Origin: Schmidtea polychroa
Lineage: Eukaryota
Assembly: GCA_044892525.1 (NCBI GenBank)
Contig: CM097885.1
Location: 7,876,001-7,940,000 of the forward strand
Direction of reading: 5' to 3'
Length of the DNA stretch: 64,000 bases
The notes under the pieces were generated by a model. It did no database searches. It was not told where the DNA came from and was given only the letters and a program-made list of their open reading frames with translations. The position numbers and the translations under genes are program-made. The number at the start of each line of letters is the position of its first letter. The stretch's first letter is position 1. Below are positions 10,748 through 56,589 of this stretch, one piece after another.

Positions 10748-12030
10748 TCCTCATCTTTGTAAGTCTTTCTTCCTTACGATTATGTTAACAAATATTTGAT
10801 CATTGAAAATAGATCTGTGAAATGTTCAGCAAAATCAAACTTTTCTTTTATTCATTTGAAATTTGTCAGAAAAGAAAATAAAATGTAATCGGTCTAAAAA
10901 GCCTCAAAATTTTCATTTCTCAATTGCAGTATTTAAAACAAAGGGAAATTGCAATAGAGTATGATCCGATCATCCGCTGAACTAATGTTTTTAGAACAAA
11001 AATCATTGAATCTGCAAATTTTCATGAGTCTAGACTTTTGACGGTTTCTGCCTATTAATCGTCTGCGGCATAGGGGAAATAGTTCAATAGATGACAGGCA
11101 TTAGTTTACTTTTATAATATTATTTGTTTGTTTAGTGAACCAATATACCTGAATACTGAGTCGAGAGCCAGTTTAATTTTCATTTCCTATATGTAAAAAT
11201 AATTCATTTTAGAGAAATAGTTAAATACTTATTTTTTGAAGCCTTATGTTATAGTGATGGATCAGTTAAACAGTAATGAGAAACCCTCTTACATATATAT
11301 TGAGATGATATATATATATATATATAGACGGTAAAAGGATAAAAGGATAACAGAAACCATAATGTCTTTGTCACTAAAAAGTACATGAGTAAAAACAAGC
11401 AATTTTTTTCTTATCCCCCAAAAATGTATTTCTAAGAGAAATATTTATGAAAAATTTGTATAATTGTCTTTTAGTTCTTCTAGACTCCCGATAACGAAAA
11501 TATAAAATATAAATCTTTATAACATGCTTCTTGCTATTTAGCTTAAAGTCAAACTTGATTAAAAATTAAATTTTAAAAATCTAAAAATTATTGTTCTCAT
11601 CTGAATTTGCAGTCGACTGTCAAATTATATTATTTTCAATCCACTTTAATTTATCTTCAGAGAAATTTATTTATATAATTATAAATATAAATAAAAATTA
11701 ATAAGATAATTACTATTATTATTATTACACATATGGTGGTCCACGAGACTAAATATAATGGGGTAAGTGAGACATGACATGCATGTCTCATGGCAGCTAA
11801 CATGTTAAGAAGAAAAAAATGAGAATTTTCGATTATGAAATCCACCTCTTTAATCTGCATAAGAAAATATTTTGAATGTGAATTTGAAAATGTTGATCTT
11901 TTATTTTTGAATTTTCTGCCTTTTTATTGGATTTTTATTTAATTTTGAAATTCAAATTTTTATCAAAAATGAACTTTTACAACTTTATTTATTATTTATG
12001 ACAAATTTTCTTAATATCTGCAATCCTTGT

Positions 12031-14809: not shown

Positions 14810-15022
<213 letters not shown>

Positions 15023-20115: not shown

Positions 20116-20898
20116 GAGGTAGTCCCCGACTTACGACCGTTCGACCTACGACTAATCGGGCTTACGACCATTTTTTTGCAATTTCTTTCATAGAAAATAC
20201 TTAAAGAAGACAAATATGTAGTTGCGGGGAATCCCTAAAATATATGAAAAATATTTAAAAAAAAACAAAGTAAAAAAAAATCGATTTACATACATATCGA
20301 CTTACATTATATTAGCTGAGTCGGAATTTTTTTAAGTGAATAATTTTATATCATCCCAAAAATGGCTGCAACTAGTAAAACTAGTAAAAATAAAAGAAGT
20401 GTTATAGACTTGGAAACCAAACATAAAATAATATTACAATTTGAAAGTGATAAAAAAGTGAAAGATATAGCACATGATCTTAAACTGTCTCATTCGACAA
20501 TATCGACGATTTTAAAGGATAAAAAACGAATTTTGGAAGCTATAAAAGAATCGACATCTATGAAATCTACAATAATAACCAAAAATAGAAATGGTCCCAT
20601 ACATGATATGGAAAAACTATTAGTGATTTGGATGGAGGATTTGATTCAAAAACGAATTCCTCTAAGTCTCGCAATTATCCAAACCAAAGCATGTAGTCTT
20701 TTCATGATGTTTAAAATTAAAGGACGGTAAAAACTATGATTAGACTTTTACTGCAAGCCATGGTTGGTTTCAAAGATTTAAAAAAGACAACTAATTTTTA
20801 AATGTAAAAATTGGTGGAGAAATTATGTAAAAATTATGAAATTCGACTTACGACCGATGACCAGGAACCTATCTCGGTCGTAAGTCGGGGAATACCTG
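20116..20898 (+). mobile_element. Internally deleted Tigger/pogo DNA transposon
   Basis: TIRs gaggtagtccccgacttacgac / gtcgtaagtcggggaatacctg with TA on both sides; contains a CENP-B-type transposase N-terminus. Confidence 0.92.
20362..20790 (+). pseudogene. Tigger transposase N-terminal fragment (psq-type HTH + CENP-B HTH), no DDE domain
   Basis: KRSVIDLETKHKIILQFES..IAHDLKLSHSTISTILKDK..MEKLLVIWMED..IPLS..IQTKA; after a frameshift FTASHGWFQRFKK. Confidence 0.9.
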
Positions 20899-22535: not shown

Positions 22536-22940
22536 GACAATATAATTGTAAAGTAACAAACTAATTAATTATAAAAATGTTGGCAGCATTACCTTATCTT
22601 AACGAAAAAATCGCACAGACGTGTTACCACGTAAACCCATTTAAACCGTCTATTGTTGCTCTTCGCGTTCAATTAATTGACTATTGAAAATGCAATTGTA
22701 TTATAGCATATCCAATTGTGTAGTTTATAAAAGAGATTGTTATTTGTTTAAGTGATATTATTGATATAGATCACATATAAATTTAGTTCACTTCATTGCA
22801 TAGACAAACATGCCTACAATAGCTATGACATGGCTATATAATTAATTTATTATCATTAAAAGAACTTCTTTCGATTTTAAACTCTCATTTCATTTCAATT
22901 ATCATTGTATTTTTTAAAAAATTTACTAAAAATTAGGAAG

Positions 22941-23010
22941 GACATTGATGTATATTTTGATAATCACGAATCTTCGGCAGATCCTTTTTCAAGTGATGTT
23001 GATCATTATC
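22941..23010 (-). mobile_element. Family B fragment with hammerhead-like motif (22964-22996)
   Basis: Minus strand reads tcac-ttgaaaa-aggatctgcc-gaag-at-tc-gtga. Confidence 0.65.
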
Positions 23011-25630
23011 AATAAATCTTTGAAAATATAAATAAAATTAAATTGCATTTAAATTTCAATTTATTAAGAATTTATTATAGCATCACTCTACATCTCTTCT
23101 ATTTAAAACCTTTAATTCTTTCTACATTTCGAATATTTTCATTGCCCTGTTTATTTCTTAGCACATTTCTCATATCATGTCATTTTTTAATAATTTCATA
23201 AGGCTCTTCTTTTTATATTTGTGTTGTTTATTTTTAATTTCATCAAAAATTTCTCTTCTTAGACTGTTTGAATCGTAATTTCCTAATTTCACTTTGTTTT
23301 ATTTTAATTAATTGCCTACAATTAGTCTCACAAAATATTAGGTATTTTTTCTCAGGTATGTTTTGGCCGAATGAGGGATTGGGGTACATATATATTCTTT
23401 TTCGGGACCCCCCAAATTTTATTTTTTGGACACCCCCCATATCTATATTTTTTAAATTATTGAGTTTTGTTTCAATCATCGATTAATTTTTATTTTTTAT
23501 AAGAACTTTTTATATCAATATACTTGAAACTAAATTCTCTATTAAATGAGACTATGATGTAATCAAATTTGTGAAATATCATTTTGTAGTGCACCATTTT
23601 TGAATTTACACATCTTTAAATATCTTAAACAACTTGAGATATTTTCACTCAAAAATATATAGATAGAATTTAAATCTCTACAAAATGACATCATTATTTA
23701 TTCACACTCATAACACCTTAAACAATGCCTTTTCAGCCAACTTTTACATACACACACATTTTCAACTTTTAAAAAATACAAATTATTCATCTATACTTAA
23801 GAAATCTCATTCTGATATTAAAAAATTATTTTAAAAATTAAAAATTTATAAAAATACCAGAGAAATTCGAGTACTATCTCGAATTGGTGATATGACATCT
23901 TTCTCATCCATTTTATATCCTTGTATTGAAATATTTACAAACCAACATGTTTTAATTACAAAAATAGTTATAAATAAATCAAGTAAGGGGAGGAAATTAT
24001 TTAGAATGAATAAGTAACATACAGACCTTAGTGTAATATGTGTTAATACATATTACAATAAACCAACTCACATAAAGAAATATCATATCACCGATATTAT
24101 CCATCTTTTTTTGAAAATATAGTCTCTAATTTTCATTCTTCTAAGCATTATCGAATTCCATCATGTTATATATCTGAGCGCCATTTAGCATATTTATCAT
24201 CTAATATACATAGATATAGGAAATTGAGGTCTCTCCATAATTTTTAATTTTAATAAATATTTTCACTAATAACGTTTAGTCTGGCTCCTGTGTCATGTAG
24301 AAATGCCATTTATTATTCACTTAAAGGTTCTTTCAGAATTTCAACTATTATTATTAAAATTTTTTTGGTTTTTGCCACTGGTACACTTACCCTTAATTTC
24401 AGTTTATTTTTGAAAATTAAAGTCAGGAACATGAAATTGTAATACTATTTATAGTACTTCCAACATAATAAAAAAAATTGAATGATATTAGTTTAAGCAA
24501 TATTATTGATACAGATCATATACATTCATTTCATTGCACACAAACATCCCCGCATCAATCGCCAAAAATCGAGATCAAAGTAACTTTGTCATATAGTTAG
24601 TTTATGGTTTGTTTATTATGAATTATTATTAACTCATTAACGCCCAAAAGAAAACTACACGTAATTTAAGAGATCTAGTGGTCTCATCTATATAATAAAA
24701 TAAATATGAATAAAGTAGTGAGATGTAGGTAGTGAACTTAAAATAGTGAGATATCTATTGTTGAAATGGGTCACTACTTCCATCAAATCACGCCTTTAAC
24801 CAGTATAAATATGTGAGTACAGTGGGTGGTAATGGGTTTAATTACCTAACAGATAAATTATGCCTTTACTGGGAAAATTAAATATTATAAGACAATTTAA
24901 TCTATGCTGCTACCAAGAGACTATTATATTATTATTATCGATCCCAATAAGCTAGGGGCTTTATTGTATATATATAATATGAAGCTCCTATTATAAAATA
25001 AAGGTATTTGACTAGAGTACTAATTTATACAAAGCCAAATGAGTTCATCATTGAAAGCAGTCAAGAAATATTTTACAGACAATGTAAAATGCAGATTAAT
25101 TTATTAATGAAGACAACCCATTTAATCAACCAGAAATTCCCTAGTTATTGTGATGGCTAGTTCATCTGGTGCATATGGTGTCTATTCCTTAGGGATATAT
25201 TTATACATTTATTTATGATTTCCTTGAATATATTGCATATGTAAATTATTTATTTATATTTCCTTTCTTATCGGCTAACGTTTATTTGCCTAGCTTGTTT
25301 TATTTAACCCCGTGAACGAGAATCTTTATTTACATTAAGGTGGGGTTTCTTATAATTATTATGAAATTTTTATTTTGTTTATTTACCATTATATATATTT
25401 CATTTTTTGCATTTGGCATAATTTTTGACGTCATGCTACTGCTAATTGGGCAAATGCAAATTAGTTATAATTATTCCTTTGCACGAGTGATAAAATATTA
25501 TTCAACTCATTTTTTCAACAAGGACTTCTTTTATAAGAAACACTTTAAAATTTCATAAAAAAAATATAAAAATAAACAAAATGATCAAATGCGTCTAATT
25601 TTGTAATATATTTTAATATTAAATTATTTA

Positions 25631-25828
25631 ATTTATTAAAAGAGACCTTGAAGACTATAAATAAGTGACATATCGATGTTCAAGTTCACATGAAAAAGGC
25701 AGTGCCGAAAATTCGTGAGTATCAACAAACATCGATAAATTACTGATTTATAGTCTTCAAGCTCTCTTTTTAATAAATTCAATGGAAAAAATAATCAGTG
25801 GCGAAATTGGAAAAAATGTTCTTATAAT
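25631..25828 (+). mobile_element. Family B hairpin element with hammerhead-like loop (25686-25718)
   Basis: Arms atttattaaaagagaccttgaagactataaat..atcgatg / catcgat..atttatagtcttcaagctctctttttaataaat; loop tcacatgaaaaaggcagtgccgaaaattcgtga; tail ..gttcttataat. Confidence 0.82.
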
Positions 25829-26939: not shown

Positions 26940-28478
26940 TTAATATACCTAAAGATAAAATCTTGAAAGCCATTTCTAGAATTCCTGAAATAAATTACAT
27001 AAAATAAAATCCATTTTCGCATAAATGGCGAGTCACAAATAATTGATGTACACACCAACCACCATTATAGAAATCGCATCTCAATGGTTTCTGGTTTAGC
27101 AAAATAATGAATCCCGCATACGCTCATCAAGACATAGACGCAAGAAAATTTATCAATTATATGTACATTATCCTTAAGAGAATTGCAGTAGTTAACATAT
27201 AACATTATGTCAAAAACAGGAATTTTATTAAAATTTCCTGCTTAGAATAGAAACTTATGACGTTCAAAGCTGTTTATGAAAATAATTCTTTATGCTATGT
27301 GTTTTGTGGATAAATATTAAATAACTTAGATATTATCAGATACTTTTCCGTGTTGAAGGTCAAAGGAGTTAAAATATGCCCAGGTCTTCTAAGGGTTTTT
27401 GAAATTAGTTTACATATTTTTGAAATCTTGGATGGTAGATCGAGTTCTTCTAACATCGGTCTAATAAATTTTCACATTAACGACATAACTTGTTCGTTGG
27501 TTCGTTTGTGGAGAAAGCAAGGTATTATTACACAGATTCATATAATTCAAGGATAAAATCTTTTATAACAACTCTCTCTCGCTCTTTATCCATGTTCTTT
27601 TTGATACTCAATTCACGTGAATAATCAAAGCGGTTACAGCGAGACTTATTTTATCTGCCTATGATGTTATCATGTTATTCTGTCTATATATGTTATTCAA
27701 ATTATCAAATCTAAATTATAAACTATAACGAACCCATAGGTTTACTATATGGCAACCTAAATAATGGTACTGGAAGGTATCTTTGGTCAGATATTACTAT
27801 TTCTTTCATTTCTTTGGTCAAATTATGGTTAAAAAATCTATTAGATTACTATTAGATTAACCGTTAAATACTTTCACTGCACCTCAGTGGCTATTTTAAA
27901 TTTATATTTTTGCAATATTTGAATTTATTTTAATTGAAGATTTTGTGTTCTTTGATGAGTGAAGAAATACATATGTTCTTTTAAAAAAAGATTATCCAGA
28001 TCTGCATTAAACTTATATTGGAACTACTGTAGTGCAAGGAAAATGTTTGTATAACAACATTTATGTCATATAAAATGATATAATTTCTAATGCAGACTAG
28101 TTACGAGTTTATTAACCAATCACCAATGTTATATATGAAAATTGGTTATACTCTGTGTTAAACACAATCATACTGCTATCAGGTATGCTAATCTAGTCAC
28201 TACATCATCAGACCATGTTTGCATTTTAAATCTTCAAATAATCAAATACATATTTATAATATTAATTACTTTTAATAATAATGTTTATTTCAGGGGGCTA
28301 AAAATAATTTAATTAAGTCAAAAAAGAAAGTCTTAACGACGATTCGTACGTCACCATTATGTAATGTTTTTTGTAAAAAGCTTTTTGATAATTATTCAAT
28401 TTATAAATAAATACATTGTTTCGACCAGTCAGAGGGGGATTGCCTCTGACTGGCAGTTTGTTGCATGCTTCTTTTGGT

Positions 28479-28542
28479 TCGCGTCTGTGTGCGCGGTCTG
28501 GTTTTGTTCGAATATTGTTGGTGTGCGCACACAGACGCGAGA
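28479..28542 (+). promoter_or_regulatory. Inverted pair of the CGCGTCTGTGTGCGC motif upstream of cassette 1
   Basis: tcgcgtctgtgtgcgc (28479-28494) and gtgcgcacacagacgcgaga (28523-28542); the same motif occurs six times upstream of cassette 2. Regulatory role inferred from position. Confidence 0.55.
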
Positions 28543-28672
28543 AGTAGGTAATTTCTTGGGTTATTGTAATTTTTGTGATATTAATTTTTGTAGAAATTAG
28601 ATTTGATTTTGTCGTTTGTTTTATTGATTAATTTTGGAATTCGGGAAGTGTGGAATTTAAAAGAGCGAAAAT

Positions 28673-29198
28673 ATGAAAGCGAAGATTGTGGAAAATGAAA
28701 AGGGATTATTCCAAGTCGAATATGCATTTAAGGCAATGGCATTAGATGGATTGCTTTCCGTTGGTATTCGAGGCAATAATTGTAGCTACACAAAGAAAAG
28801 TTCCAGATAAAATGATTGAGAAGAGTTCAGCTACAAGATTGTTTAATATTACTGAAATTACTGGAGGTGTTATGATTGGTATGATCCCTGATTGTCGATC
28901 TCAAGTATGTCGTGAACAAGTGGAAGCAGCTCGATTTAAATCTAAAATTGGATATGCAATGCCTTGTGACATAATATGTCGTTCTACTGCGGAATTTGTT
29001 CTATTGTTCGATCAACTCTATACCCAATCGGCTGAGATGCGACCATTAGATCCTGATTTCATTCAATTTCGGCCAAGGAGGGCATTATCTCATGATATTG
29101 AAATGGACAAACTATTATTATTCAAAACTGATCCACGTGGCCCTGTAGATGCCAATAAAATTGTTATACCATTTCTTGGATTTATTTGTTTTTTGTAA
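28673..29198 (+). pseudogene. PSMA6: Truncated, frameshifted proteasome subunit alpha type-6 (alpha1) fragment with a foreign N-terminus
   Basis: ATG 28673 gives MKAKIVENEKGLFQVEYAFKAMALDGLLSVGIRGNNC. An 8-nt deletion relative to copy 2 shifts the frame to ATQRKVPDKMIEKSSATRLFNITE..YTQSAEMRPL..KTDPRG; homology stops after KTDPxG. Confidence 0.88.
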
Positions 29199-29329
29199 AA
29201 AGCTTTTTGATAATTATTCAATTTCTAAATAAATACATTATTAAAATTCCATTGATATTTCCGAATACAGACCAACTGGAGTTGGAGACTTATAAGTACA
29301 TATGCTACCAACCTTACAAGACGTTGAAA

Positions 29330-29745
29330 CAATTCTAAATATAATCCTATTTATATGTTTAAGGATATTATGGTTGAATTCTCTGAAACCTTCAGAATAA
29401 GGTAATATCAACACATATTTTGATCAGTGTGCTTAGATCGAATTTTTCACCTTCCAAACTTGACAACATATTAACATCAACAATATATTCAATATCCATT
29501 CATCAACGGTCTCTTTAGTCATGTACTCTAATAAAGATTTAGAATATCCATTTTTAAGAAGCAACACAACCAAAGAATCAATACTTTTCACTGAATTGAT
29601 AAACGTGGATGATAAAGACCATGCACAAGAAACTAATCCTCTCACCATATTTCGCTTGTATTTATATTCACAAAAGCTCTCAGTAGTATAAAGACCAGTA
29701 TCAGTCGCTTTTCTTTATATTTCAGTCTGATAGTCTTTTTTATCG
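29330..29745 (-). mobile_element. Penelope-like RT thumb/linker fragment
   Basis: KATDTGLYT..SFCEYKYKRNMVRGLVSCAWSL..LLKNGYSKSLL..YVLILPYSEG, typical of the PLE post-RT region. Confidence 0.75.
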
Positions 29746-30843
29746 TTACGTCAAATTATATTACAAATACTATAATGAAATTTTCACCATCACCGAAAAG
29801 TAGTAAATGTAAACTACAAATGGTAATCCCCATTTTGAATGACCTTTAATGTGAAACAATAAAGCCAATAAGGTTTCAGTTTCATAAATTGAGTTGTTTA
29901 AAAAAGCAATTGTATATCATTTAAACAATTAAATAAAATAAAATTTAAAATTATTTAATTTTATTAATTTAATCGATAATTTAGGAGAAAATATTAAATA
30001 TTTCACGAAGAATTTTGTATTAACGAGAACAGTTTCACCTCGGAGAGTATAAAATTGAAACTAATCAAATCACTAGAACTAGTGATAAATTCTCGTTGCA
30101 AATATGTTAGACTAATTGAGTGTTTTGGGAAATTTATTCGGGAGAGGAATAATATCCTGTAAATGGATGCCCCCATTTTTGTTATTGATTCATTTGTCGA
30201 GTAATAATTTGAAAATGCAAAAAGAAAAAAACAAAATTTTGTCAATTAAAAGAATTGATACAGATGCAATTGATAAAACATATCCATGTATAACTTTCCG
30301 AGTTAATTCTACATTTTTTTGTTTAAAATTCATTTTCATCCTCATTATATGTGATTATTATCAAAATGGAAACAAATAGTTTTTTATTATGATAATTACT
30401 AAAGAGAAAATTGAAATATAATTTGTTTTAATGAGTATTTTATTCAATTATTTTTTAAAACAGAAATTTTAAAATTTCCTATAATTTTCTTTATATAAAT
30501 ATGATAATCATTAACAAATATTTTTTCACTACTTTGAAACAGAATTAAGAATAAAAATAAAAATTTAATTTAATTACAGATAAAAAAAATAAACTAATAT
30601 TAATAATTTTAATTCGTTATATTTTATTTATATATTTTATTGACACAACTGACAAAAATTTAAAAATATATATTTTTATTCATAAATATTTCTTTTAAAT
30701 CAGCGTAAAATACAAAAGTAATGTAAATTTTATAATTTAAATATAGAAAAACATTGGAGAGATCTGATTCGTTAGTTGTTAGCCAATGAGATTATTTTTT
30801 GAAAAATTGATAAATTTACACTTTTTTTATTGGGATCATTTAC

Positions 30844-31246
30844 ATGACAATGCAATTTCAAATCATATCAATAAATGCATTGATTATTTCTCTTTTGATC
30901 GATGTTAGACGAAGTTCCAATCAAAAAAGCTTTAACGTCAAATTTCATAGTATTCAAAGCTTTCAAAACATCATTACGACAGTGCGCACCTCGAATCTAT
31001 CAGAAATTAACAACTCACAATATAAACATTCATTCGTAAATTCATTTGATTTAGATGATCTCGACAGTGCTGTCTTGTTGCAATCAAAAAAGTGTACCAG
31101 TTTTGAAATACAAGAAAAACTTCAATGTTTCGAAGACCTTCCTCAAGATCGATATGAAGTTCTTCACAATTCCAGTGTTGTTATCAAATGTATCGTTCGA
31201 AATCAGCATGGAAAAGTTCAGTGGCGAGCTCAAAATGTTGTACTAG
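30844..31246 (+). CDS. First coding exon of a nephrin/Kirrel (Neph/SYG)-family Ig-domain adhesion protein
   Basis: Hydrophobic N-terminus (IISINALIISLLI), then QCFEDLPQDRYEVLHNSSVVIKCIVRNQHGKVQWRAQNVVL-G (Ig A-C strands with Cys and Trp). Donor G|gtatta at 31247, phase 1. Start codon uncertain (30844 or 30850). Confidence 0.85.
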
Positions 31247-31248
31247 GT

Positions 31249-31311
<63 letters not shown>

Positions 31312-31319
31312 TATAATTT

Positions 31320-31547
31320 TATAAGAACTTCTTTCAATTTCCACCACTGATTTCTTTTCAATTGACATTATATTCATTAAAAAATTGACTATGAATCAGT
31401 AAAGATATCGATGTTCACGAAGGCTGTCCCGAATTCGTGAATATAAAAAAAACATCGATATCTTTACTGATTCATAGTAAAGTTTTTTTAATAAATGTAA
31501 AGTCAATTGGAAAGCAATCAGTGGTGAAAATTGAAAAAAGTTCTTAC
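31320..31547. mobile_element. Fully palindromic family B element at the start of the intron
   Basis: ~95-bp imperfect arms (taagaac...atcgatg / catcgat...gttctta); degenerate loop; flanked by aataataataattataa on both sides (TSD-like). Confidence 0.8.
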
Positions 31548-32296
31548 AATAATAATAATTATAAATATAATAAAATATTAACTATTTTCTCATGTATGTA
31601 TATAATTTTGTATATTATTTTCTGAAATGTAATTTATTTCAAAATTCATTAAAATTGTGTCAGATAGAACTCATTTTTTTGATCTTTTGTCGGAAAGAAA
31701 GTAAATGAATTCTCATAAAAGGAAAACAGATCAAAGTTGACCAAAAAACAGTTTAAATATCGATACAATTTAAACAAAATAATTTAAAATCAAAAATTTT
31801 AATTTTAGCGTTCAATAGAATAGATGAAACCAATTTTTTTTAGAATTTTGATTGATTAAAACAAATTTTAAGTAGAAAAAAATTAATCAGATGTCGTTAC
31901 AATCTTTTTTTTGTCAATATAGAAATATCAGTGTAAATCTCTTGATTCGACGAAAGACTCGTTTGAGAGCTAAATTGTGCGAGATTGACGGTAGCGATTC
32001 CGATGCAATAAATGTCAGCTGATTAATGCATTTGATGTTCATAATTTTCAATTTAAATACTTTTAAACAAAAAAATGAAAATTAAATTTTCCATAGAAAT
32101 CTAATTCCATGCATTTGCTTTTTATTGAACGGTACGGAAATGAAATTCATTGATTTACAATTAAGATTATCTAAAAATCAAATGATTTTGATGAATTAAA
32201 ACAAAACTGAAAATGAATAAAAATGAATTATTATTATTTTGAAACATAACGTTATTCACATGGTGATTTATTATATTTATTATTGTGATGATTACA

Positions 32297-32437
<141 letters not shown>

Positions 32438-33694
32438 TTATTATTAATATTATTATTATTATTTTAAACAATTTAATGATAATTTAAGTTTCTTGCTGCA
32501 AATCATATATTTAATACAAATTTAGACTATAAGATGAGTCTTTTTCAATTTTCTGGAATTTTGCTTCTTCTATTTTCTAAAATGCTCTTTCACCTTCTCT
32601 TTTATTAATTTTTTCTTCTCATTTGTTAAATATAATAATACACTTTTTTTAAAGAATATAAAATTTAAAATTTTTTAATTAAAATCTTCTAAAATTCAAA
32701 ATGAAACAATTTTTTAAAGTTTTTAAAGCTTCTGTAATTAACTCAATGAAACCTATTTCCAATAACCATTTATACACAAAATTTAAATATTTAAATAAAA
32801 TGTTTCTATTTTGATTTTTATTCTTAAATGATCTTTTAAAAGTAAATTTGATCTTTTTTTCTATATTATTTTAAAATTATTATTTTTTAACTTTTAATTT
32901 AATTTTTTACAAAAGCTATTCTCAAGGTCAAAAACAACAAATCAATTTCATTTATGTATTCTTTATTGTTGATAATTGGCCGTTTGTTTATTATGAGAAT
33001 TGCTTCTTTAAATGTGACATATTTTTTTTGGATGTTTCCATTGGCTAAAATTTTTATTGAAATATTTTTTCTTTCCTTCCTTGGTTCACATTGTTGGAGA
33101 TATCTGTATACCGATGATTTTCAACCATGATTTAAATGTTCTTTAACTCTTCAGCGCAAGATCCTGAGCATACTTCCAATGTATATTTCCTTACATACAT
33201 TGCGTGTGATGCAATAGAATGTTTTTTCGAAAGCACATATCTTTTAGTGTCTGGCAGTTTTCCATTGTGCAATTGGTTTCTCTTTTTGTGTTGTTTGCCA
33301 GAGCTTTTCTCAATGTCCAAGATTTATTGTGCTATCCAAATTGGAAAGCCAGTGCGTTCAGTTCTTACAGGATCTTGAAGGATCTTGTAAATAGTTCTCG
33401 TTTTATTCAGTACATCACTAATCTTTGGTGCATAAATATTTGTTTTACAGCTGGTTTTCTGTAGAACTTGTATACTCTACTTATATTTTATTTTTTTAAA
33501 TCCAGTAGATTGATGGATCTTTCCGGATATTCGATTTCAAACTTAATATCTCAGTGAGCCGCATTGAATGTATGAAATATTTCCTCATCATGATTTGTCG
33601 TTCGAGGTTATCCATAAATAATGATTGCTAACAATCCTTATATGCTAGAACCCATAGGCAGACCTGTAACTTGTTTATAGACATTTTGTTCAAA

Positions 33695-34069
33695 TTGTAT
33701 TTATTAACCACTTGCCGGGTGATTTTTTTTCATGTTTTCGGTCAAAAAAAAACTATTTTTTTTAAATCATTAATTAATAGTATATAATCAAAATATAACG
33801 TATATATATTTTTTAATTTTCCGAGTTTGTATTCACTATTTTTTCTATATGAGTTTGCGCTCACATGTGAGCGCCCGCCCGAAATGGTACACATTTTTTG
33901 CATTCATATTTGAGCGCGCGCCCGGCAAGTGGTTAAATAGCTTGACTATGAAAAAGTAAATTTATTGATATTTTTGATATATTTACTGATTCATAATCAA
34001 GCATTTTAATAAATACAATGTCAATGGAAAAGAAATCAATGGTGAAATTTGAAAAAAAGTTCTTATAAT
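33695..34069 (+). mobile_element. Family B element inserted in the PLE RT, with 12-bp TSD
   Basis: ATTTTGTTCAAA duplicated at 33683-33694 and 34070-34081; family B arms and gttcttataat tail. Confidence 0.85.
33708..33932. mobile_element. piggyBac-type MITE (deletion derivative of 6243-6921) nested in family B
   Basis: TTAA TSD; TIR ccacttgccggg / cccggcaagtgg; both ends match the 6243 element. Confidence 0.88.
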
Positions 34070-34178
34070 ATTTTGTTCAAAGGTAAAATAGGTGTCCTCG
34101 AAGGTAACATTAGAAAGTTTGAAGATATTCTCGGTATTTATTTCTTTTATTAACTTGTTGCTTTCTCTTATAAATATA

Positions 34179-34231
<53 letters not shown>

Positions 34232-34444
34232 CATTATTATTATTATAATTATTATTATAATTATTATAATAATAATTATTATTATTAAAAGAGAAATACA
34301 TCAAAAATACAATTTTCAAATATAATTAATTAAATTATTATGACTCTGAAACTAATGATTAAAAGAAAATATTTTTAATTAATTATTTAATTAATTATTC
34401 TAATTATATTCTAGCAAAAATTTGTTTTACAAATTTTATAATAT

Positions 34445-34547
<103 letters not shown>

Positions 34548-36881
34548 CAATTTAAAAGACATTGTTTGAATGAAAAGCAGGTTGTCGTTTACTGAACGTT
34601 GATAGACATTGCATTTAATAAATTATCGTTCCCTGTCAGTTTCATAAAAATAATTTATGAAATTTTAAATGTAAAATTTCCCAGAAATAAAATCACAATT
34701 GAAATTTTCAACAGTTGAATTTCTAAATTTATTTTTGCCTCGATGAAATAATATTATGGCGATGGGAAATGTTATACAGAATCACACCTGTCATGCTGGT
34801 TTTAGTAAAGTTTCTAACAAAAAATATTATTTAATAAAGACAAAGGAAGAAAATGAAAATAAATAGATTTGCAAATGGGAAAATTACGATTCAATATATA
34901 GTAGACAAATGAGCATGGAAAACAAGTGCAGATTTTTTGTAAATACCATAAAGCAATAAATAATGCATTTTGTTTTAATTGTTAGGCCTAAAATGAATTT
35001 AATAATGCGGAAATATTTTGCCATAAGCTGGTCATTGTTTGATTTGTATTAAATAGTAGTAGGGATAATAATTATAATTTAATATTTATTTTGTCATTTT
35101 GATTTTTTGATGAATTATCTTCCTTTCAAAATATTGTATATCTTTTTGATAGTTTGGAGGATTTCACATTTTTCAATCTATGTTAAGCTTCTTAGATTCA
35201 CTTAAATTTTTGCCTTCATTTGTTTCTTGACTTTATTTTTTCCTTTTGAAAATTTGTTGTAAAGAATGTTTTGCTAAAATGTTGGTAAAAGAAAATATGG
35301 TAATTAACTTCAGAAATAATTCAATATTAAATATATTCTGGATTCGAGGTAAAGAATATTAAATTCATAATAATTGCTGGTTTATGTGTTCATTTAATAC
35401 ATAAATAGTAACAGTCAATGGATATTTGAAATGATTAAGTTACGAGCAATACAAGCACACGTACACATACATACACACAATATATCAGACATGCTTGTGT
35501 AAGAACTTTTTTAGGTTTTTTATTTTTTTATCAGAAGATTATATTTTAATATTTACAAGATATTTTTATTTTACAACATCATTCAATTGTCCTGAAGGTC
35601 GTTGGAGATTTTAAAATGTTTTTAAATTATCTATAGACTTTAAAAGTAATTTGAATATGTTCACGTATGATATAATAAAGATTATTGTCGAATATATTTC
35701 TACCAAGCCAATTTCTATGAAGCCCATTACGACTTGTTTTGTTTTAATGAAACCATCATTTTAATCAGAATTCTAATAAGATTCCAGAAAAAAAGTTACA
35801 AAGTTTATTCTAAAAAAAACCTTGTAATTCTTTAAAAAAAGATTAGATTTCAATTTTTTAAAGTTTAAAAATTTAATCATTTGATCTATTGTTGATTAAA
35901 TTATGAGGAAAGTAATTAAAAGTATTTAACCTTTAAGGCTTTAACCTTTTATTTACAATTCCTTTATTTTTATTTTATCGATCAATATATTTTGCATTTT
36001 GCAATATTTTTGAACTGTTTGATAGCTTATCTAAATCATCATCAGCAATGTAATATAACAAGCAGCTTCTCAATAAGACGTATCAGTTATATATTATTGC
36101 TTTTATAACAACGTGCGTTTTTCAAATATAGTTTAAAGTTCAATTATTATAATATTTGTTCAGCTGACACTTAATGCACATATATCTCTGCTGATTGGCT
36201 GTGGATGTGATATTAATGATATAGTTACATCCTAGCAACTGGTGGCAGACTGTAATTATTTTTTGTAATACAACATATTAAATATCAGTAAAGTTGAGTC
36301 AAATAATAAATTTATTTAAATAAATCAGAATAAATCAAACTTTCTTTATTCCTTTTGAAAAAACCTGTTTACGTCACTGTTACTCATCAACGTTTTTTAA
36401 ACATTGATCTATAATCTGGACGAAATGAAGACAATAAACATCGATAGATTCTAGGAGATAAAGACAATTAAATGATATGTTTAGTAGCATAGACATAAAA
36501 TTTGATGTGATAAATATAAATTATATTTTCCCCTTGCTTGTAATCATATATAATATTATAATAATGTATATGAAACAATTACCCACTATTAATTTTCTAC
36601 TTTCAATGAGGAAAACCAAATAATAAAATGCGATACTTTTTATTAATTAAGAGTTAATAAAATATAATTTTTAGAGAAAACTTCTATAATAACTTTTTAT
36701 TCATTGAATTTATCGTATTATTTATTTTATGAAAATAATATTTTATTTTTTTATTTTTATTTTTTTATATTTTATTTTTGATAACATAAATAAAAACACT
36801 TTGAGCATCAATTTGTCTTTGATCAAATCAGGTTATAACAAAATAATTAAAAAGAAAGAATAAATAAGCTTTTTCTTTGAA

Positions 36882-38645
36882 TTAAGAAATCGGGACTAAA
36901 ATTAACCCTTAGAAATGCGAGTTCTTAGTATCTGAGTTAAAGTTTCTTGGACATATAATTAATGAAAAAGGTACTATAACAGATAATTCTAAGATTGAAA
37001 CAATTAAAAATGTAAAGCAACCTAATCGTGTGAAACATATTAGGAGTTTATTAGGATTGTGTGATTACTATAGAAAACGTTTGCAAAACTACTCAAAAAT
37101 AGCTAGGCCATTGGAATCTTTGATTGGAGGTAAAAACAAAAGTATTGTTTGGACATCACAGTGTGAAAAAGCTTTTGATGAGTTAAAACATAGTTTGATC
37201 AGTCCACCATTACTATGTCATCCGGATTTTAATAAAACGTTCATTTTAGATACCGATGCTAGTTTCGATTGTATTGGTACTGTTTTATCGCTAAGAGATG
37301 ACAATAATGAAGAAAAGATAATCGCATATAGGTCATAAAGTATGCATAAACATGAAATTCGGTACTGAATAACAAAAAAGTATTATTATCTGTTTTCCAT
37401 TTTATACAGCATTTTAAACATTATCTCTACGGGAAAATAATTATTTTAAGAACTGATCATAAGGCAATCACATTTATGTTAACTACAAATAAACCAATCG
37501 CCGCTCAGTTTCAAAAATTGGATCAATTTTTTAAGTATTTTGGACATGAAGTTAGAATATCGCAAAAGCGAGAAACACAGTAATGTGGACGCACTATCAC
37601 GACTGAATATCAAAAATTGCACACAATGTCAGATGAATCATATTGGTGCTAAAGCAGAAAAAATTAAAATGTTAGCAATGTCAATAGAAGATCAAACATT
37701 TAAATGACAAAATAATTCTGAAGATATAATGGAAATAAAAGAAAACATTCAGAACGGCAAAACTGAAGATTCTTATGTGGACAATGGAACTATTATGACT
37801 CATAATAATAAAATATATATTCCTTCATATAATTAAAATGATTTTATACCAGAAATCCATAAAGAATTGTGTCATGCAGGAATCAACAAAACGACAACTT
37901 GTTAAATTTGCCAGAAACATAAAACATTCATTAGGAAAACAAAAGAAGTTATTGAAAAGTTTATTGCATATGAACCGTTTGAAAAATTATATATTGATTT
38001 TTGTGGCCTCTTTAAAATGACACCAACTTGCAAAAGATATGTGATGGTTATAATAGATTATTTTAATAAATATATATAGTATTAAAAGCTGTGAGAACAC
38101 AAGAAGAAAAGACATTAGTTAATAATGTGAAAAGTTCGTGAATATTGAAGTTTGGACCGTCAAAGGAAATTCATATCGATAAAAGAAAATGTTTCGAATC
38201 CCAAGTTTTTAAAAATATGGCAGTAAAGTATCACTTGAAGATAGTTTATTCAGGTCCTTGTCATCATCAATCTATTGGACAAATTGAAAGACAATTTAGA
38301 ACGCTAAGAGACTGGATTTTATGCTGCCTGGTAGTGAAACAATTTAAGACATGGGAATTAAGACATATAGAATTTGCAATGAATTCAATAATGCAGTCAA
38401 GTATAAAAGTTAGTACTGTTGAAGTAATAAATAATTATAATCAAGAAAATCGAATACATTAATCTTTCAGAGTCGGTGAATTGGTACTCGTCAAGGATGA
38501 TATCAGAAACAAACAAGATAACATGTATTGCGGATCTTTTGAAATAATGGAAAAATACAATGAAAATAGTTATTTATTAAGGAATACTGATAATAAATGT
38601 ATTACTAGAAATGTGGAATGGCTAAAGCCATTTAAAACTAGGGGA
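36882..38645 (+). mobile_element. Decayed Ty3/Gypsy pol (RT C-term, RNase H, integrase)
   Basis: KFLGHII, RSLLGLCDYYRK, LLCHPDFNKTFILDTDASFDCIGTVL, LRTDHKA, NVDALSR, HKELCHAG, PFEKLYIDFCG, GQIERQFRTL; RT-RH-IN order; many stops and frameshifts; PPT-like aaaactagggga at the end. Confidence 0.93.
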
Positions 38646-38883
38646 TGTGATGTAATTATAATGGAATATTTGATTTCCCTAACCTCTACTCTATATTATG
38701 TAATGCCTGCATGTGTGATTGATTATTTTTGACTGCCTGGGACTTCAAATTATGTCACTGTTTATTATTTCCCAATAAGATATTGCTGATTGTGTTGGTG
38801 TCGGCACACCGAATACTATACATTGTGCTATAATTTCTTAAATAAAGTTTTTGGAATGTCTAAAATTATTGTTATTCTTTACA
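38646..38883 (+). repeat. Putative 3' LTR of the Gypsy element
   Basis: Begins TGTGATG directly after the PPT, contains AATAAA, ends TTTACA. Confidence 0.65.
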
Positions 38884-38939
38884 TGTTGTGCGCGATGCTT
38901 TTGAATATTTATCACTATTTATCATAACCCTAATATATA

Positions 38940-39062
38940 TTATTTATTAAAAAAATTGATTATAAATCAGTTAAGATATCGATGTTTTTTGATATTCACG
39001 AATCTTTACTGATATTTACTGATTCATAGTAAATACAATAAATACAATGTCAATTGAAAAGA
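38940..39062. mobile_element. Partial family B element abutting cassette 2
   Basis: tatttattaaaaaaattgattataaatcag..atcgatg..tcacgaat..tttactgattcatag..aataaatacaatgtcaattgaaaaga. Confidence 0.7.
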
Positions 39063-39599
39063 TTATAGAAAAGAAAAATATAGAATATCAATTTTATTGT
39101 CATCAACAGAGCCACTGGGATCAGTTTTGAATAATAACGGTTTGTCCATTTCAATATCATAAGATAATGCCATCATTGAACAACCTAATGGTCGCATCTC
39201 AGCCGATTGGGTGTAAAGCTGATTAATATCCGCAATACAACGACATATTATGTCACAAGGCATTTCATATCCATCTTTATATTTAAATCGAGCTGCTTCC
39301 ATTTGTGCACGACATACTTGAGATCGCCAATCAGGGATCATACCAGTCATAACACCTCCAGTACTTTCAGTAATATTAAACAATCTTGTAGCTGAACTCT
39401 TCTCAATCATTTTATCTGGGACTTTTCTTTGTGTAGCTACTACATCACAATTATTGCCTCGAATACCAACGGAAAGCAATCCACCAAATAAATTTGATAT
39501 TAGTTGGCCAAAAACACCATTGACGTTATCAGATTCAAAAGACCATTTATCCTCGATTATATTGTTTGATTCATAAATTTCTTCATTAAAAGCAGCCAT
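39063..39599 (-). pseudogene. PSMA6: Open 178-aa chimeric ORF: 38-aa foreign N-terminus + proteasome alpha type-6 (alpha1) fragment + foreign tail; expressed status unknown
   Basis: GGLLSVGIRGNNCDVVATQRKVPDK..VMTGMIPD.RSQV.RA..EAARFKYKDGYEMPCD..IADINQLYTQSAEMRPLGCSM..KTDPSG matches alpha1. Lacks the N-terminal FDRHITIFSPEGR motif and the C-terminal third. Confidence 0.85.
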
Positions 39600-39744
39600 A
39601 TTTTATCGGAAGCACATAAACTCCAAAAAACCGAAATCGATAAGTAAATCTTACACCCAATCACACCATTAACAATCAAATTTTTTAATCTAAAAAATTA
39701 CTACAAAAAACACAACTAACAAAATAAATTGCCATACCTCTTAC

Positions 39745-39969
39745 TCGCGTCTGTGTGCGCACATCCATATTACCATAATTCTGCACACAGACGCGAGAAC
39801 ATTCAACAAAACATACTCATAAATCTTCACAATTCTTTACTCGTCTGTGTGCGCACAGAAACCAAAAACAAAGATAAAGGCGCACACAGACGCGAGATAA
39901 ACCAACAACCCGACCATTTTACGCGTCTGTGTGCGCACACAACCCAAACAAAAACGCACACAGATGCGA
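39745..39969 (-). promoter_or_regulatory. Array of six alternating-orientation CGCGTCTGTGTGCGC(AC) motifs upstream of cassette 2
   Basis: Copies at ~39745(F), 39783(R), 39841(F), 39880(R), 39921(F), 39955(R) with divergent spacers. Regulatory role inferred. Confidence 0.6.
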
Positions 39970-40805
39970 CAAACTAATAATTTACCAATAAATACAATGT
40001 CAAATACAAATGTCAAAGTTTTTATAATGTACATACTATTTTCTATAGATATGATCTATTCAGTTCACTCTTTATTGTTTGAACTGTAAAATAATTTGAC
40101 CTTGAACATGAAAATAAATAAAATAATCTTACATTACAATATTTAACAGCACAACACCAAAATAATAAAAGTGGTAATAAAAAAATAATTAGCCGTAGCA
40201 TTATTATTGGTATAAATAGAAATATTGTAAAAGGAAGCACAATTTTACAACAATTTAATATTTATTCTTTATAAATTTCAAACAATTCCTAAATTCTAGG
40301 AATATATGTATAAATTTAATTAAATTCTTACAAGAGAAACTTTTCTTTTGTATATTATGGGAGAAAATAAAATTGGTTTTGGGAATTATTTATGCTGTTA
40401 TTTTTGATAATATTTATTATCCGTCAGTTGCGAATCTCCTATATTCTCAAGCTGGACAATTTTCCAACATGAACTGACTGGATTAGAACTAGCTGTTATA
40501 TTTATTTTTAAAATAAATACTAAATAAATACTAAAAGAGAATTATAATAATTTTCCTTTTGTCGAAATTAGTTGTTAATCTCTTCTAATAAATGGAAGAT
40601 TACCATTCCCATAATTTAAATCTAATTTGGAATTTATTAAGGATTTGAAATTATAATACCGTCACAGTTGTTCACGTAGCGGCATCCTTTTTACATGTCT
40701 TTCTGGGATCTCTCATATCAATCTTAATAATCGTTTACACAAAACAATCAGTGAAACGTATTTTATTAAGCTTCCGTTTCTGTAACACAATATGATTATC
40801 TAAAT

Positions 40806-41752: not shown

Positions 41753-43061
41753 CTTTCTCAATTGTTTATTTTGCATATTCTGATAACAACGATTTTATGC
41801 AAAACCTCTGACAAATTGAGAAAATGATAACATCAAATATATTTTGAATTAACTTTCATAGAAATTCACATCAATTTAGAAACATTTTAGTGTAATTGAA
41901 TGTTACAATACAATTGGGTTACCATGAACGCTTTGTATTATGAAATGAAATACTTTGCCTATGATCAGATTTCTTAGACTTTTTTCACCATTTCCTCTTG
42001 ATTTATGATGTTTAAACTGTTTACTCGTTCTTGCAGTATTCCCAAGAAATTTGGCATTAAGATTCGCATTAGTAGTAGTATTTTTTATATTTTGAAAATA
42101 ATAATTATTCAATAACAGTATTTAACCTAATTTTTTTACTTCTATTTGTACCAAAAATTTAGGATCAGCCAATAAACATTTAAAGAAAGGTTTGCAAAAT
42201 GAAAGTCAAATGGAAAATAATTGACCAATGGGGAAGAAGATAAAAGAATTTACTGATATTTAAGGTTTTTACCTACATAATGAAATGCATAATGATAAAT
42301 AATTTAAAATCATACGCGTGTTGAATAATTTGTAAACGTAAAAAAAATATGTTAAAATGGTATGAAATGTGATAAGAAGGAAAGGATTTATTATTTAAAT
42401 TCAATTTTCTAATTTGCTAGTTAAATTTAATTATTTATTAATTAAAGAATATTTTGACAAAACTAATCAACAAACGAGAAGGAAATAAATATCGTCAAGA
42501 TGGATAAAAATATATATAGGAATTAATATAAATTATAAATTAATTATAAATAATATATAGAAATAAATTACTTTATAATGTAAAAATGAGTCAATCTATA
42601 TGGTAACAGGAAATATGTCATTAAATAATTATATGGAAAGAATCAAACTAAAAAATAATATTATTGAGAATGTATAAATTGAAGAGAAATAAAATGTTAA
42701 TGCAAAGAGAGAGTGCAAAGAAATCAAAAATTAGAAATTCAAACAAATTCAGAAAATTTAATAAAAATTTGAAAAATGGTAAGAGCAATATTTCTGATGG
42801 TGAAAAGTATGATCAGATGGCAAACAATAAGATAAGCATAAATATGCATCCGTTTGCATGAAATAAAAACGTTTATAATACAGGTTGTTGTACAAATATG
42901 TAGATGACTCACAATTTGTCATTAATTATTTTCATTCATATTATCAATTTGTTTTTATTTGGATTTAGAATAAGTTTTAATTATTTTAAACTTAATTTTA
43001 AATATTAAATTTTAAATATTAATTTTAAATATTAATTTTAAAATGACAAATATTTATTAAA

Positions 43062-43206
43062 TTTATTAAAGAGAGTTTGAAGACTATAAATCAGTAATAT
43101 ATCGATGTTTGTTGATACTCACAAATTGTCGGCACTGCCTTTTTCAAGTGAATTTCACTTATCAGAATTCAATAATTAGTGGTGAAATTGGAAGAAAATA
43201 AAGTTT
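43062..43206 (-). mobile_element. Family B element with hammerhead-like motif on minus (43119-43151)
   Basis: Minus strand reads tcac-ttgaaaa-aggcagtgcc-gaca-at-tt-gtga. Confidence 0.75.
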
Positions 43207-50328: not shown

Positions 50329-51317
50329 CAAAATGATATATGTTAACGGTTATAAACAAAAAATATTATTTTTTCAGCGGTACTCAACAATTAAAGAAAT
50401 GTTACACTAAACACTCGATCTTAGCTAGCAAAATGAGTATAAAGTCAAACACATTTTAACTCGCTTATGACCATTAAAGAGTTAAATAAGAAAAAGAATG
50501 GAAAGTGAAGTGCTACTGATATTTGCATGTATTTTAAATATAGGTAGTTAAATTATTATAGATTACTTTATTATAGAATCATTAAGGAAATTGGTAACTT
50601 TAGTGATGACATCTCATGGGTAAAATTTAAAGTGACAAGGAACTTAATTTAGGATATTGAACCCAAGCTTATAGAGAAAACTCAGTACACTCAGAGGTTA
50701 AACCGAGATACCAAAATCATTTATTAGTTAGAATATCACTGGGAGGTTTATAAAAAGGCGGGATTTTGAATTATATGGGAATTGATGTAATGACTCCTTC
50801 ATGCGTCCAATGTATTAAATGTGGCTAAAATGTAATAAAAATAATTCAAATCTAATTTCAAATAAATCCTTAACTATAAATAATTAAAAATTATTTAATT
50901 TTATTATTATTCGCAGTTCTCTGTTGAAATGAAATGAAAAATTCCTAATAATAATGAACATTTTTAAAGAATCCCTGGGAGAGGTCCATTAATCTATTTG
51001 TTAATGATATTCAAAATATATTTTAATAAATGTTTTAATTTATATTTATTTTTATCGATCTTTAAAATTGCACAATGGGGCATCTCGAAAATAACAATGA
51101 AATCGAAATTGAGATACAATTTATAATTGACAGGATAAAGATCTAATAATTATTATAATTATTATTAACTGATATTATATTCTCCTCTTTGAAAATGTAT
51201 TTAATAATCAAATAAACAAATCAGATTCAAGATAAATGAATAATGTAAAATGATAGAAAATTATGATAATTATAATAATTAAAGATGCAAAACTGATGGT
51301 AATGAAACAATATTTAG

Positions 51318-51497
51318 GTTATGACAGATCTGTTCCAGGAATGGAAAGGTTGAACATTATTGGCGATGCTAGCAAAGGAGAGCACAACTTACAGATATTA
51401 AACATTCAACCGGAAGATAGTGGAGAATACGAGTGTCAAGTTCAGCCGGTTTCCAGACATCCTTTATTAAGAAAAAAAGCACAAGTTACAGTTCATG
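51318..51497 (+). CDS. Second coding exon of the nephrin/Kirrel-family gene (completes Ig domain 1)
   Basis: Acceptor tttag|gt at 51317 restores the Gly split at 31246; YDRSVPGMERLNIIGDASKGEHNLQILNIQPEDSGEYECQVQPVSRHPLLRKKAQVTVH (DxGxYxC); donor G|gttggt at 51498, phase 1. Confidence 0.92.
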
Positions 51498-52119
51498 GTT
51501 GGTTGATTTTATATTAAATTTAAATTTAATTAAAACATTTAATTAATTTAATTAATTTTAATTAAACATTAATTATACATTTAATTATACATTTAATTAA
51601 ACATTGAAAAACCCAACAATAAGGAATATCCTATTGAAAGGGTTTATAGTGCTAACGGTAGACATTTATCTATTTAGGAAGTACTAGCAGAACTTTATAC
51701 ATTGTCGCTTTAGGTATTATACTAGTATTATAATAGGCGACATAAGCAGCTATCTAGAGAAGCGGCAAAATTATGAAAAATTAAAGTTTAAAAATATTTT
51801 TATGCTATGAAAGTTATTTGTTGTGCTTCGTGCTACTAATATCACTTTTTATGATGCCACTCGTGCCCCATAATTTCATCAGGTTAGAAAAAATTGATTT
51901 AAAGAAATGTATAATAAAATATGTACAAAAATATGTATTTATGTACAAAAAATCTTATTACATCAATATTTTCGCGTCTTCTGCTCAAAGATGTCTGGGG
52001 CTGACTGTCTGTATACTACGTTTTATGAATGTATCAATATTTCTTTATTTTTTATTATTTTAATTTCATGGAAAATATATTGGAAAATAATATAATTAAT
52101 ATTTATTAAATAGTTAAAC

Positions 52120-55266: not shown

Positions 55267-56589
55267 GCACTATTTACTTGAATTAGACACGAATGGTTTT
55301 CTCTCGCTTATAATATGTAAATCCTTTAGAGTACGGTAATATCAATACAAATTTAGGCTCATTGTCCTTACATTAACTATTAAATCTATTTACTTAACCC
55401 TCTACTTATTCGCACTACTTAAATTACACTCATTCTCATAGAATTTATAATAAATTTATCAACAATTTCTTTATTCATTATTAACCCTTTCCTATCTTGT
55501 GTCTATAAAAATATGACAAAAAAATTAACCATTCTATCCTCTGTCTGTAAAAAATTATATTACTGATGGTGATAATGACCATGAAAATGATATACAAGAT
55601 GCACAGTTGAGCACTGACGATGATGACGATAATTCTTTTTAATTTTTAAAATTTTTTAAAATTTTATTAGGATCGGAACGGGCCGGACACATAAAATAAA
55701 GAAGATAGAAAAGGGTTAATAAAAATGAATTTAAATTCTTAATTGACAACCTAACCAATTTTTCAATAATTTTACTGAATTTTTACACGTTTTTCTTTCT
55801 GGCATATTTTAATTTACTTTGTCTTTAATTATCATGGTTTATTAGGTCCTTGATCAATAATTTCATTTATTTAAACACAAATTTTCATCATAACCTTTTT
55901 TCTATTTTATCCAAAATATATGTATAAAATAAAAAAATTTAAATTTGATTTTAAAAATTTTGTAAACATTATTCTAATAATAATTATTATGTTATTTTTT
56001 AGTACATAACTGTAACAGTCTGCAACATTTTAAATTATTCGATTAAACGATTTTAAGAAATTCATTTTATTTTCTTAAGATTTTCTTAACATTTAAAATA
56101 ATAGAATTATCTAAAATATTTAATTATTAGTAAAAGAACTTGTCATAAGACGGTTGTATAGCGGCCCATAAAAATAATAATAATAATTGTGTTCTTTCAG
56201 TATACTCAATGATTTGAAAAAATCGAAGAATTGATCTTAATTTCCAGAAATTTATTTTAATTTGTTTCAACTCATGTAAATGCCACATACTTTTTAATTT
56301 TTGATATGAAGAATTTTTTTAATTTTAAATGAAACTCGGGCTCAAGAAACATTATATCATTTAATTATTACATTATATAAAAGTCATTAATTATTCCACA
56401 TGCATTAACTTAATGCTCATTTAACGTTTGAGAAATTAAATTTAATAAATAATTAAATTAAAGTTTATTTGATAACATATTTGCTAGGATTATTAAACAA
56501 AATTTAAAATTAAATTGCTAAATTCTAATAAAATAAATTTTCAATATTTAATAAATTTTATATTATACCATATAAAAGTTGAAGTAGTA

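Follow-up and report, generated by a model that had tools for sequence, protein, structure and literature searches.

Long terminal repeats of a young BEL/Pao retrotransposon family in Schmidtea polychroa carry fragments of spliced host mRNAs in frame with ubiquitin-Gag

Introduction

The window analysed here is a stretch of 64,000 nucleotides from the genome of Schmidtea polychroa (assembly GCA_044892525.1, contig CM097885.1, positions 7,876,001 to 7,940,000 of the forward strand). It contains two short units, copy A and copy B, that carry the same truncated piece of PSMA6, a gene for a proteasome alpha subunit. An initial annotation, made from the letters of the window, described them as mini-gene cassettes that had captured a fragment of a housekeeping messenger RNA (mRNA). 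The locus raises the question of what these units are, how the PSMA6 fragment came to lie in them, and whether it is read as protein. Both units are independent solo long terminal repeats (LTRs) of a young BEL/Pao retrotransposon family. It can be held with good confidence that the LTRs of this family are mosaics of spliced host mRNAs in one frame with ubiquitin-Gag or ubiquitin-Gag-Pol, and that the mosaic is likely translated as an N-terminal extension, which would be cut off at the Gly-Gly of the ubiquitin.

The retrotransposon family behind the two units

The units belong to a dispersed, high-copy family, as the initial annotation had supposed. A 26-mer from the PSMA6 core matches the genome 1,084 times at ≤1 mismatch, while exact matches number 6,424 for the 15-mer of the repeated motif and 921 for the 5' end pattern of the copy A type (the reversed-pattern control gave 0 in each case). 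A DNA search with the core returned 1,439 candidates, and all 40 that were scored are 97–100% identical. Of the 30 best PSMA6-core loci, 21 could be delimited at both ends; these run from TG to CA over 0.5–1.1 kb. A target duplication of at least 4 bp is present in 15 of these 21 (two of the 15 within microsatellites), and two further two-ended loci adjoin a primer site or a polypurine tract. One of the 30 best loci continues from the LTR into a primer site, ubiquitin, a DUF1759 Gag, a G-rich tract and a second LTR that is 97% identical. The junction of LTR end and primer site has 343 exact matches in the genome. Over 18 nt, the primer site is the complement of a genomic methionine transfer RNA (tRNA-Met) that carries an A1:U72 pair, the mark of an initiator tRNA.

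A Gag search of the genome gave 851 candidates. Among the 150 scored, 12 lie in frames of at least 1,850 codons and 20 in frames of exactly 1,153 codons, the latter representing an element type without Pol. Twelve elements were fetched from this search, picked for long frames. Their LTR pairs are 99–100% identical in every case, by which these elements are judged to be young. Duplications of 5–6 bp and a G-rich tract ahead of the 3' LTR were found in nine of the 11 two-LTR elements examined. A full-length element measures about 7.7 kb, and Pfam recognised ubiquitin, DUF1759, RVT_1, Peptidase_A17 and DUF5641 in all three full-length frames scanned, with Integrase_H2C2 below the cut-off. Since the full-length frames hold DUF1759, reverse transcriptase, Peptidase_A17, an integrase zinc domain and DUF5641, the family is BEL/Pao. 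A conserved leader intron, which the initial annotation had proposed as a GT..AG segment of about 50 nt, found no support: a donor-like GT follows the last motif in 39 of the 164 LTR ends tested.

Several side observations concern the same family. The primer tRNA is encoded in a tandem tRNA-Met array (G000:C1, about 79.33–79.39 Mb, L189–L192) with a period of 454 bp, and a 22-mer from it matches the genome 1,226 times. The element itself is also found in tandem, with 3.4–4.5 kb between primer sites, at G000:C1:253.41 Mb, C2:93.44 and 97.52 Mb, and C54:0.13–0.14 Mb. Insertions of the family inside (TAA)n or (TA)n microsatellites were seen at L016, L022, L028, L030, L067 and L098.

Frame continuity from cargo to Gag

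All 12 two-LTR elements keep the frame open through the primer site and on into ubiquitin-Gag. An in-frame ATG lies 187–219 codons upstream, inside the 5' LTR, in 10 of them, and the frame is broken within the LTR in the remaining two. Because these 12 had been picked for long frames, junctions were also sampled by position. This sample comprised 70 of the 343 junctions, taken on contig C1 with the junction pattern as the sole criterion. The initial 30 of the list were used, followed by a second set of 40 that omitted six sampled previously and two lying close to others. One segmental duplication accounts for four of the 70. Over the last 450–60 nt of the 70 LTRs, the Gag frame holds 168 stops, compared with 588 and 884 in the other two frames. 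The Gag frame has the fewest stops in 57 LTRs, and in 51 it runs open through 100 codons or more to the primer site. Gag phase was also found in 25 of 26 distinct PSMA6 segments despite their varied end points, deletions and internal repeats. The leader is stop-free over 354 nt in the Gag frame, a result reached in none of 20,000 shuffles. The cargo frame is likely read by ribosomes as an extension of variable sequence at the N-terminus of ubiquitin-Gag(-Pol). The Pol-less type keeps the whole frame open as well, which suggests a need in cis.

Origin of the PSMA6 cargo and selection on the frame

Pfam labels the frames of copies A and B as proteasome subunit, and the closest public relatives of both are flatworm proteasome alpha-6 proteins (60–68%). 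In the host, PSMA6 (L096) is a gene with a complete frame of 246 residues and three GT-AG introns of 42–50 nt. Together with the AT-rich composition and the flatworm relatives, such short introns suggest a planarian-like host. The motif is absent from this gene, as the host locus gave no match even when 3 mismatches were allowed, and is thus not the native PSMA6 promoter. When the cargo was aligned to the host coding sequence, 68 of 77 distinct copies crossed the intron-2 junction without the intron and none retained it. Therefore, the PSMA6 cargo is derived from spliced mRNA, and the capture of a housekeeping mRNA fragment, as first proposed, stands. The intron-1 junction is crossed in four of the 77 copies. 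The end point at KTDPxG that the initial annotation saw in both units is indeed common to them, but it is not general in the family, where 31 of the 77 copies end at host codon 159 and the rest between codons 98 and 187. Identity of the cargo to the host sequence after capture ranges from 74 to 97%. PSMA6 was found by DNA match alone in 35 of the 70 junction LTRs, and it is present on both Gag lineages described below. One such cargo fusion is already in a public protein set (P0025). A degenerate second copy of the 3' part of PSMA6 (L097, G000:C3:79.62 Mb) has stops and has apparently kept the last intron; it is not LTR cargo.

Variants of the cargo were scored against the host sequence, and those of ubiquitin, Gag and leader against one natural copy. 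The ratio of nonsynonymous to synonymous polymorphism (pN/pS) of the PSMA6 cargo is 0.82 for singletons and 0.81 for shared variants, so its residues drift. No stop is shared between copies, with 5.1 expected, and singletons contain 6, with 6.6 expected (Fisher p 0.039). The sole frameshifts common to several PSMA6 copies form a compensating −1/+1 indel pair, found in seven copies. For variants common to at least four copies, pN/pS is 0.27 in ubiquitin, 0.21 in Gag and 0.72 in the leader; ubiquitin and Gag are under purifying selection. The earlier argument against selection on the protein is thus correct for the cargo residues, which are unconserved, but not for the open frame and its phase to Gag, which are conserved.

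Other cargos and mosaics

In other LTRs of the family, the cargo comprises Ras/Rab, EAP30, DSPc, Adaptin_N, Cpn60_TCP1 and RING pieces as well as several without a name, either singly or fused. Rab1, SNF8, DUSP12, COPG and CCT3 are presumably among the genes concerned. Housekeeping families are the source of the named cargos, which are Rab-, ESCRT-II-, phosphatase-, chaperonin-, RING- and adaptin-like.

As a hint only, a junction of RING and PSMA6 cargo is bridged by a 132-nt contig (run X1) and by a 279-nt contig (X5, with a second organism label), the RNA status of both being guessed. At L031 (3562–4221, minus strand), an intronless frame of a ubiquitin-conjugating enzyme (UQ_con) lies about 2 kb from an element and outside any LTR.

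Ubiquitin ahead of Gag

The family has two Gag lineages that are 34% identical, and each carries a diverged ubiquitin that ends in Gly-Gly immediately ahead of Gag. This terminal Gly-Gly is kept in 44 of 49 type-I copies and in 17 of 17 type-II copies, and Gly75 is encoded by all four codons. The type-II lineage has an additional near-canonical ubiquitin upstream, in which Gly-Gly is lost in 4 of 14 copies. In a protein search for further ubiquitin-Gag fusions, polyubiquitins crowded out any other match.

The two solo LTRs in the window

Both copies are present where the initial annotation had placed them, and much of its description of their make-up proved accurate. Its unit limits needed correction, since the sequence that it had taken as the start of copy A is host flank (Table 1). 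The motif pairs are inverted repeats, one in copy A and three in copy B, with folds of −23 to −34 kcal/mol. The pair in copy A is likely a promoter element of the unique 3' region (U3). The N-termini differ between the copies, as described. Across the whole block common to both copies, an alignment of 435 columns that includes indels, identity is 85%, and the 212-nt core is nearly identical: 12 bases differ in 11 codons, and 10 of these change the amino acid. The AATAAA of the described tail is present, but it lies inside the open frame, where it codes for N-K.

Copies A and B differ in 5' end type and flanks, and are therefore separate insertions; their closest relatives also differ. A composite element spanning both copies was ruled out by the same three differences. 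The 52-nt duplication around copy A is likely either an atypically long target duplication or the product of later repair. The frame of copy A is broken by an 8-nt deletion relative to the host gene at 28783/28784, besides insertions. The frame of copy B is a mosaic of three genes that is open for 178 codons. The host source of its first module is locus L118 (93% identical), whose continuation matches the genome once and which has no LTR motif. For the second module, the L135 cargo is 85% identical to P0029, a protein with zinc-ribbon PF14369 and RING domains. In the explanation preferred here, the two copies are separate, damaged remnants of LTR-LTR recombination.

Table 1. Positions of features of the two solo LTRs, numbered from the first letter of the window
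Feature	Position	Strand	Remarks
Copy A, solo LTR	28417..29186	+	TG start; lacks the terminal CA present in relatives; 3' end by comparison with L067, L075 and L174
Left copy of 52-nt flank duplication	28365..28416	.	1 mismatch to 29187–29238
Right copy of 52-nt flank duplication	29187..29238	.	Pairs with 28365–28416
Copy A inverted motif pair	28479..28540	+	Fold −34 kcal/mol; motif absent from host PSMA6 locus
Copy A cargo frame	28673..29151	+	ATG, short remnant of another cargo, PSMA6 host codons ~17–159; without introns 1 and 2
Copy A AATAAA	29154..29159	+	Near LTR end, within reading frame
Copy B, solo LTR	39987..39078	-	TG start; final 14 nt gone; 96% identical over 908 nt to solo LTR L015
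Copy B inverted motif pairs (three)	39743..39969	-	
Copy B cargo module 1	39538..39619	-	End of 5' untranslated region and start of first exon of a single-copy host gene; provides ATG at 39599
Copy B cargo module 2	39475..39532	-	Piece of RNF115/126-type RING E3 ligase mRNA; matches cargo of L135/L059
9-nt microhomology	39475..39483	-	Common to RING-ligase piece and PSMA6 at their in-frame junction
Copy B cargo module 3	39106..39483	-	PSMA6 host codons 32–159; 97.4% identical to host coding sequence, without intron 2
Copy B AATAAA	39093..39098	-	Within reading frame

Other features of the window lie outside the two LTRs. One member of a dispersed AT-rich repeat family hosts copy B; members are at 2468–2603, 6027–6221, 14814–14892, 22856–22974, 25622–25816, 31319–31514, 33920–34033, 38934–39060 and 43049–43126. 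Beside copy B, the broken frames at 36913–38732 resemble pieces of gypsy-type reverse transcriptase and integrase. An inverted duplication of about 1.4 kb, 99–100% complementary, connects 55267–56806 with 60463–62078. Further frames resemble an actin fragment (10454–10750, minus strand), a Tigger/CENP-B DNA-binding piece (20344–20730, plus strand) and an immunoglobulin-domain exon (51257–51517, plus strand).

Proposed mechanism and alternative explanations

It is highly probable that transcription runs from the motif hairpins to near the LTR end, that the cargo lies in a long repeat region (R) of the element RNA, and that only frame-keeping captures spread. Transcription would start after the motif hairpins and stop near the LTR end, giving an R of about 600 nt with the cargo inside. 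An AATAAA or ATTAAA lies 25–50 nt ahead of the LTR end in 50 of the 70 junction LTRs (0–10 of 70 in control windows), so R likely ends there. Selection on cargo phase would be meaningful only for a cargo that forms the 5' end of the element RNA and is translated on into Gag; R therefore likely holds the cargo. The first ATG of the element RNA would then be in the cargo. Captures that break the frame would lower Gag output and spread no further, while in-frame host coding sequence would serve as a ready stop-free filler in an AT-rich genome.

R is also the region where reverse transcriptase must switch templates, and a mis-switch onto co-packaged mRNAs would fall in it. Capture is thus probably due to template switching by reverse transcriptase at microhomologies on such mRNAs, after which plus-strand synthesis would place the cargo in both LTRs. 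For the last step, the idea that a host deubiquitinase cuts after Gly-Gly is slightly favoured by analogy; Gag would thereby receive a fixed N-terminus, and the cargo would be free to vary. This predicted release of Gag is modelled on the ubiquitin insertions of pestiviruses (PMC8310069).

Several points weigh against this account. In 19 of the 70 junction LTRs, some of them truncated, the open stretch is shorter than 100 codons, and in 13 the Gag frame does not have the fewest stops. The test on shared stops involves small numbers, and some copies are segmental duplicates. Non-PSMA6 cargos were named from Gag-frame translations, by which an out-of-frame cargo would escape. Gly76 is altered in 5 of the 49 type-I copies, one of them young with a long frame, although the changes lie in unrelated backgrounds and are not shared. 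The ubiquitin tails LRLCGG and LGLAGG depart from the canonical LRLRGG at positions 72–74, which may hinder ordinary deubiquitinases. The 3' junctions of both window copies are abnormal and lack a 4–6 bp duplication. In addition, the leader contains in-frame ATGs, so that Gag could also start after the primer site.

Those leader ATGs would also suit a passive cargo that lies in U3, is not translated with Gag, and owes its frame match to one ancestral arrangement. This explanation is improbable, because many unrelated cargos and variants with deletions and duplications are all in Gag phase and no stops are shared. A benefit from the released peptides, for instance as dominant-negative or decoy products of solo LTRs or of the polyprotein, is very unlikely, and the dominant-negative producer suggested in the initial annotation is judged accordingly. 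Several cargos do concern protein turnover or trafficking (proteasome, RING ligase, ESCRT-II, Rab), and copy B retains its 178-codon frame. However, pN/pS is about 0.8 for shared variants, and the fragments have variable end points and random fusions. In intact LTRs the frame moreover reaches the LTR end without a stop, which would probably make any transcript of a solo LTR a non-stop mRNA.

A doubtful role for the cargo is that of a shield: likeness to essential host mRNAs would make silencing by PIWI-interacting RNAs (piRNAs) difficult without damage to the host gene, rapid swapping of cargo would evade small RNAs, and keeping the frame would be an added constraint. The housekeeping origin of the named cargos agrees with this, as do their frequent replacement and the occurrence of PSMA6 on both Gag lineages. 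The same conflict is described for maize elements with captured genes in a 2026 review (PMC13317346). Nevertheless, abundant mRNAs are the likeliest to be co-packaged, so the bias needs no selection, and the cargo diverges from the host sequence after capture. A Pack-type or Helitron-like vehicle was one possibility named in the initial annotation, but a cassette of this kind, with an intron and a poly(A) site of its own, is scarcely credible. The window copies by themselves would allow it, since they lack normal LTR junctions and an internal region, whereas the LTRs of their relatives are accompanied by primer site, polypurine tract and Gag-Pol, and the cargo is intronless. The LTR ends, the spliced cargo and the two-LTR elements rule out a Pack-type transposon with terminal inverted repeats as well as a Helitron, and the units are LTRs of a BEL/Pao retrotransposon.

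The preferred explanation of frame-kept, translated cargo leads to a broader and quite tentative idea, which is considered unlikely at present. The LTR may act as a frame-locked, ubiquitin-insulated cargo slot, a long R that repeatedly samples abundant mRNAs, joins them into chimeric proteins ahead of Gag, sheds these through ubiquitin cleavage, shields the element from small RNAs by likeness to essential genes, and seeds units of a promoter plus a chimeric open reading frame (ORF).

Relation to known systems

BEL/Pao elements, including the Flow superfamily, likewise have a single Gag-Pol frame with DUF1759, reverse transcriptase, Peptidase_A17, an integrase region and DUF5641, as well as LTRs, a primer site, a polypurine tract and short target duplications (PMC3118150). 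Two families from Schmidtea mediterranea belong to Flow (de la Chaux and Wagner 2011, PMC3118150). The main text of that paper uses neither the word 'ubiquitin' nor 'proteasome'.

LTR-mediated retroposition, including maize Bs1 cited there, also produces partial spliced copies of mRNAs and multi-gene chimeras through microhomology and repeated copying (Tan et al. 2016, PMC5131818). Intron loss (68 of 77 against 0 retained) and a 9-nt microhomology at the one junction examined are the corresponding features here. In that system, a retrocopy takes the place of part of the internal ORF, and what results is a rare, non-autonomous product. In contrast, the present family holds cargo inside both LTRs in frame with Gag, in more than 1,000 copies; it includes full-length Gag-Pol, and the internal Gag-Pol is complete in several elements. 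Cassandra elements resemble the family in having host-derived sequence within the LTRs of a high-copy family (bioRxiv 10.1101/2023.07.14.548913). Theirs is one conserved non-coding piece of a 5S ribosomal RNA promoter in non-autonomous plant elements, whereas the cargo here is protein-coding, interchangeable and in frame with Gag, and full-length elements exist.

Cytopathic pestiviruses, such as bovine viral diarrhoea virus (BVDV) CP Rit, share the captured host mRNA and the ubiquitin within a polyprotein (PMC8310069). Host ubiquitin hydrolases cut after this ubiquitin and create a defined N-terminus, a cleavage that has been shown. Pestiviruses are RNA viruses with sporadic insertions of a near-canonical ubiquitin, whereas the ubiquitin of the present family is old, diverged and fixed in two Gag lineages, and its cleavage is only predicted. 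The Burro giant elements are also planarian LTR elements with host-like domains in the polyprotein, including a ubiquitin/SUMO-like motif (PMC6431247). They are gypsy-like, exceed 30 kb and carry the extra domains internally, downstream of an N-terminal Gag, whereas the present family is BEL/Pao, measures about 7.7 kb and has its cargo in the LTR ahead of Gag. The literature search found no description of the family; Repbase reports, subscription papers and supplements lay outside it and may contain one. PMC8532177 has no occurrence of 'proteasome', 'solo' or 'captured'.

Significance

The family changes the view of where and how often LTR elements capture host genes, since capture takes place within the LTR, in full-length elements, and with 1,000 or more copies from a single donor gene. 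Its many dated captures offer a natural system for measuring template switching, and for testing whether captured sequence of an essential gene protects a transposon from piRNA silencing. It also suggests that ubiquitin can serve as a host-cleaved linker in a retrotransposon polyprotein. About 1,000 near-identical PSMA6 fragments, together with the other cargos, would confuse gene annotation, read mapping and the design of RNA interference in the host animal. If the tentative idea of a cargo slot were true, the family would amount to an autonomous machine for exon shuffling, with thousands of units of promoter plus chimeric ORF spread across the genome.

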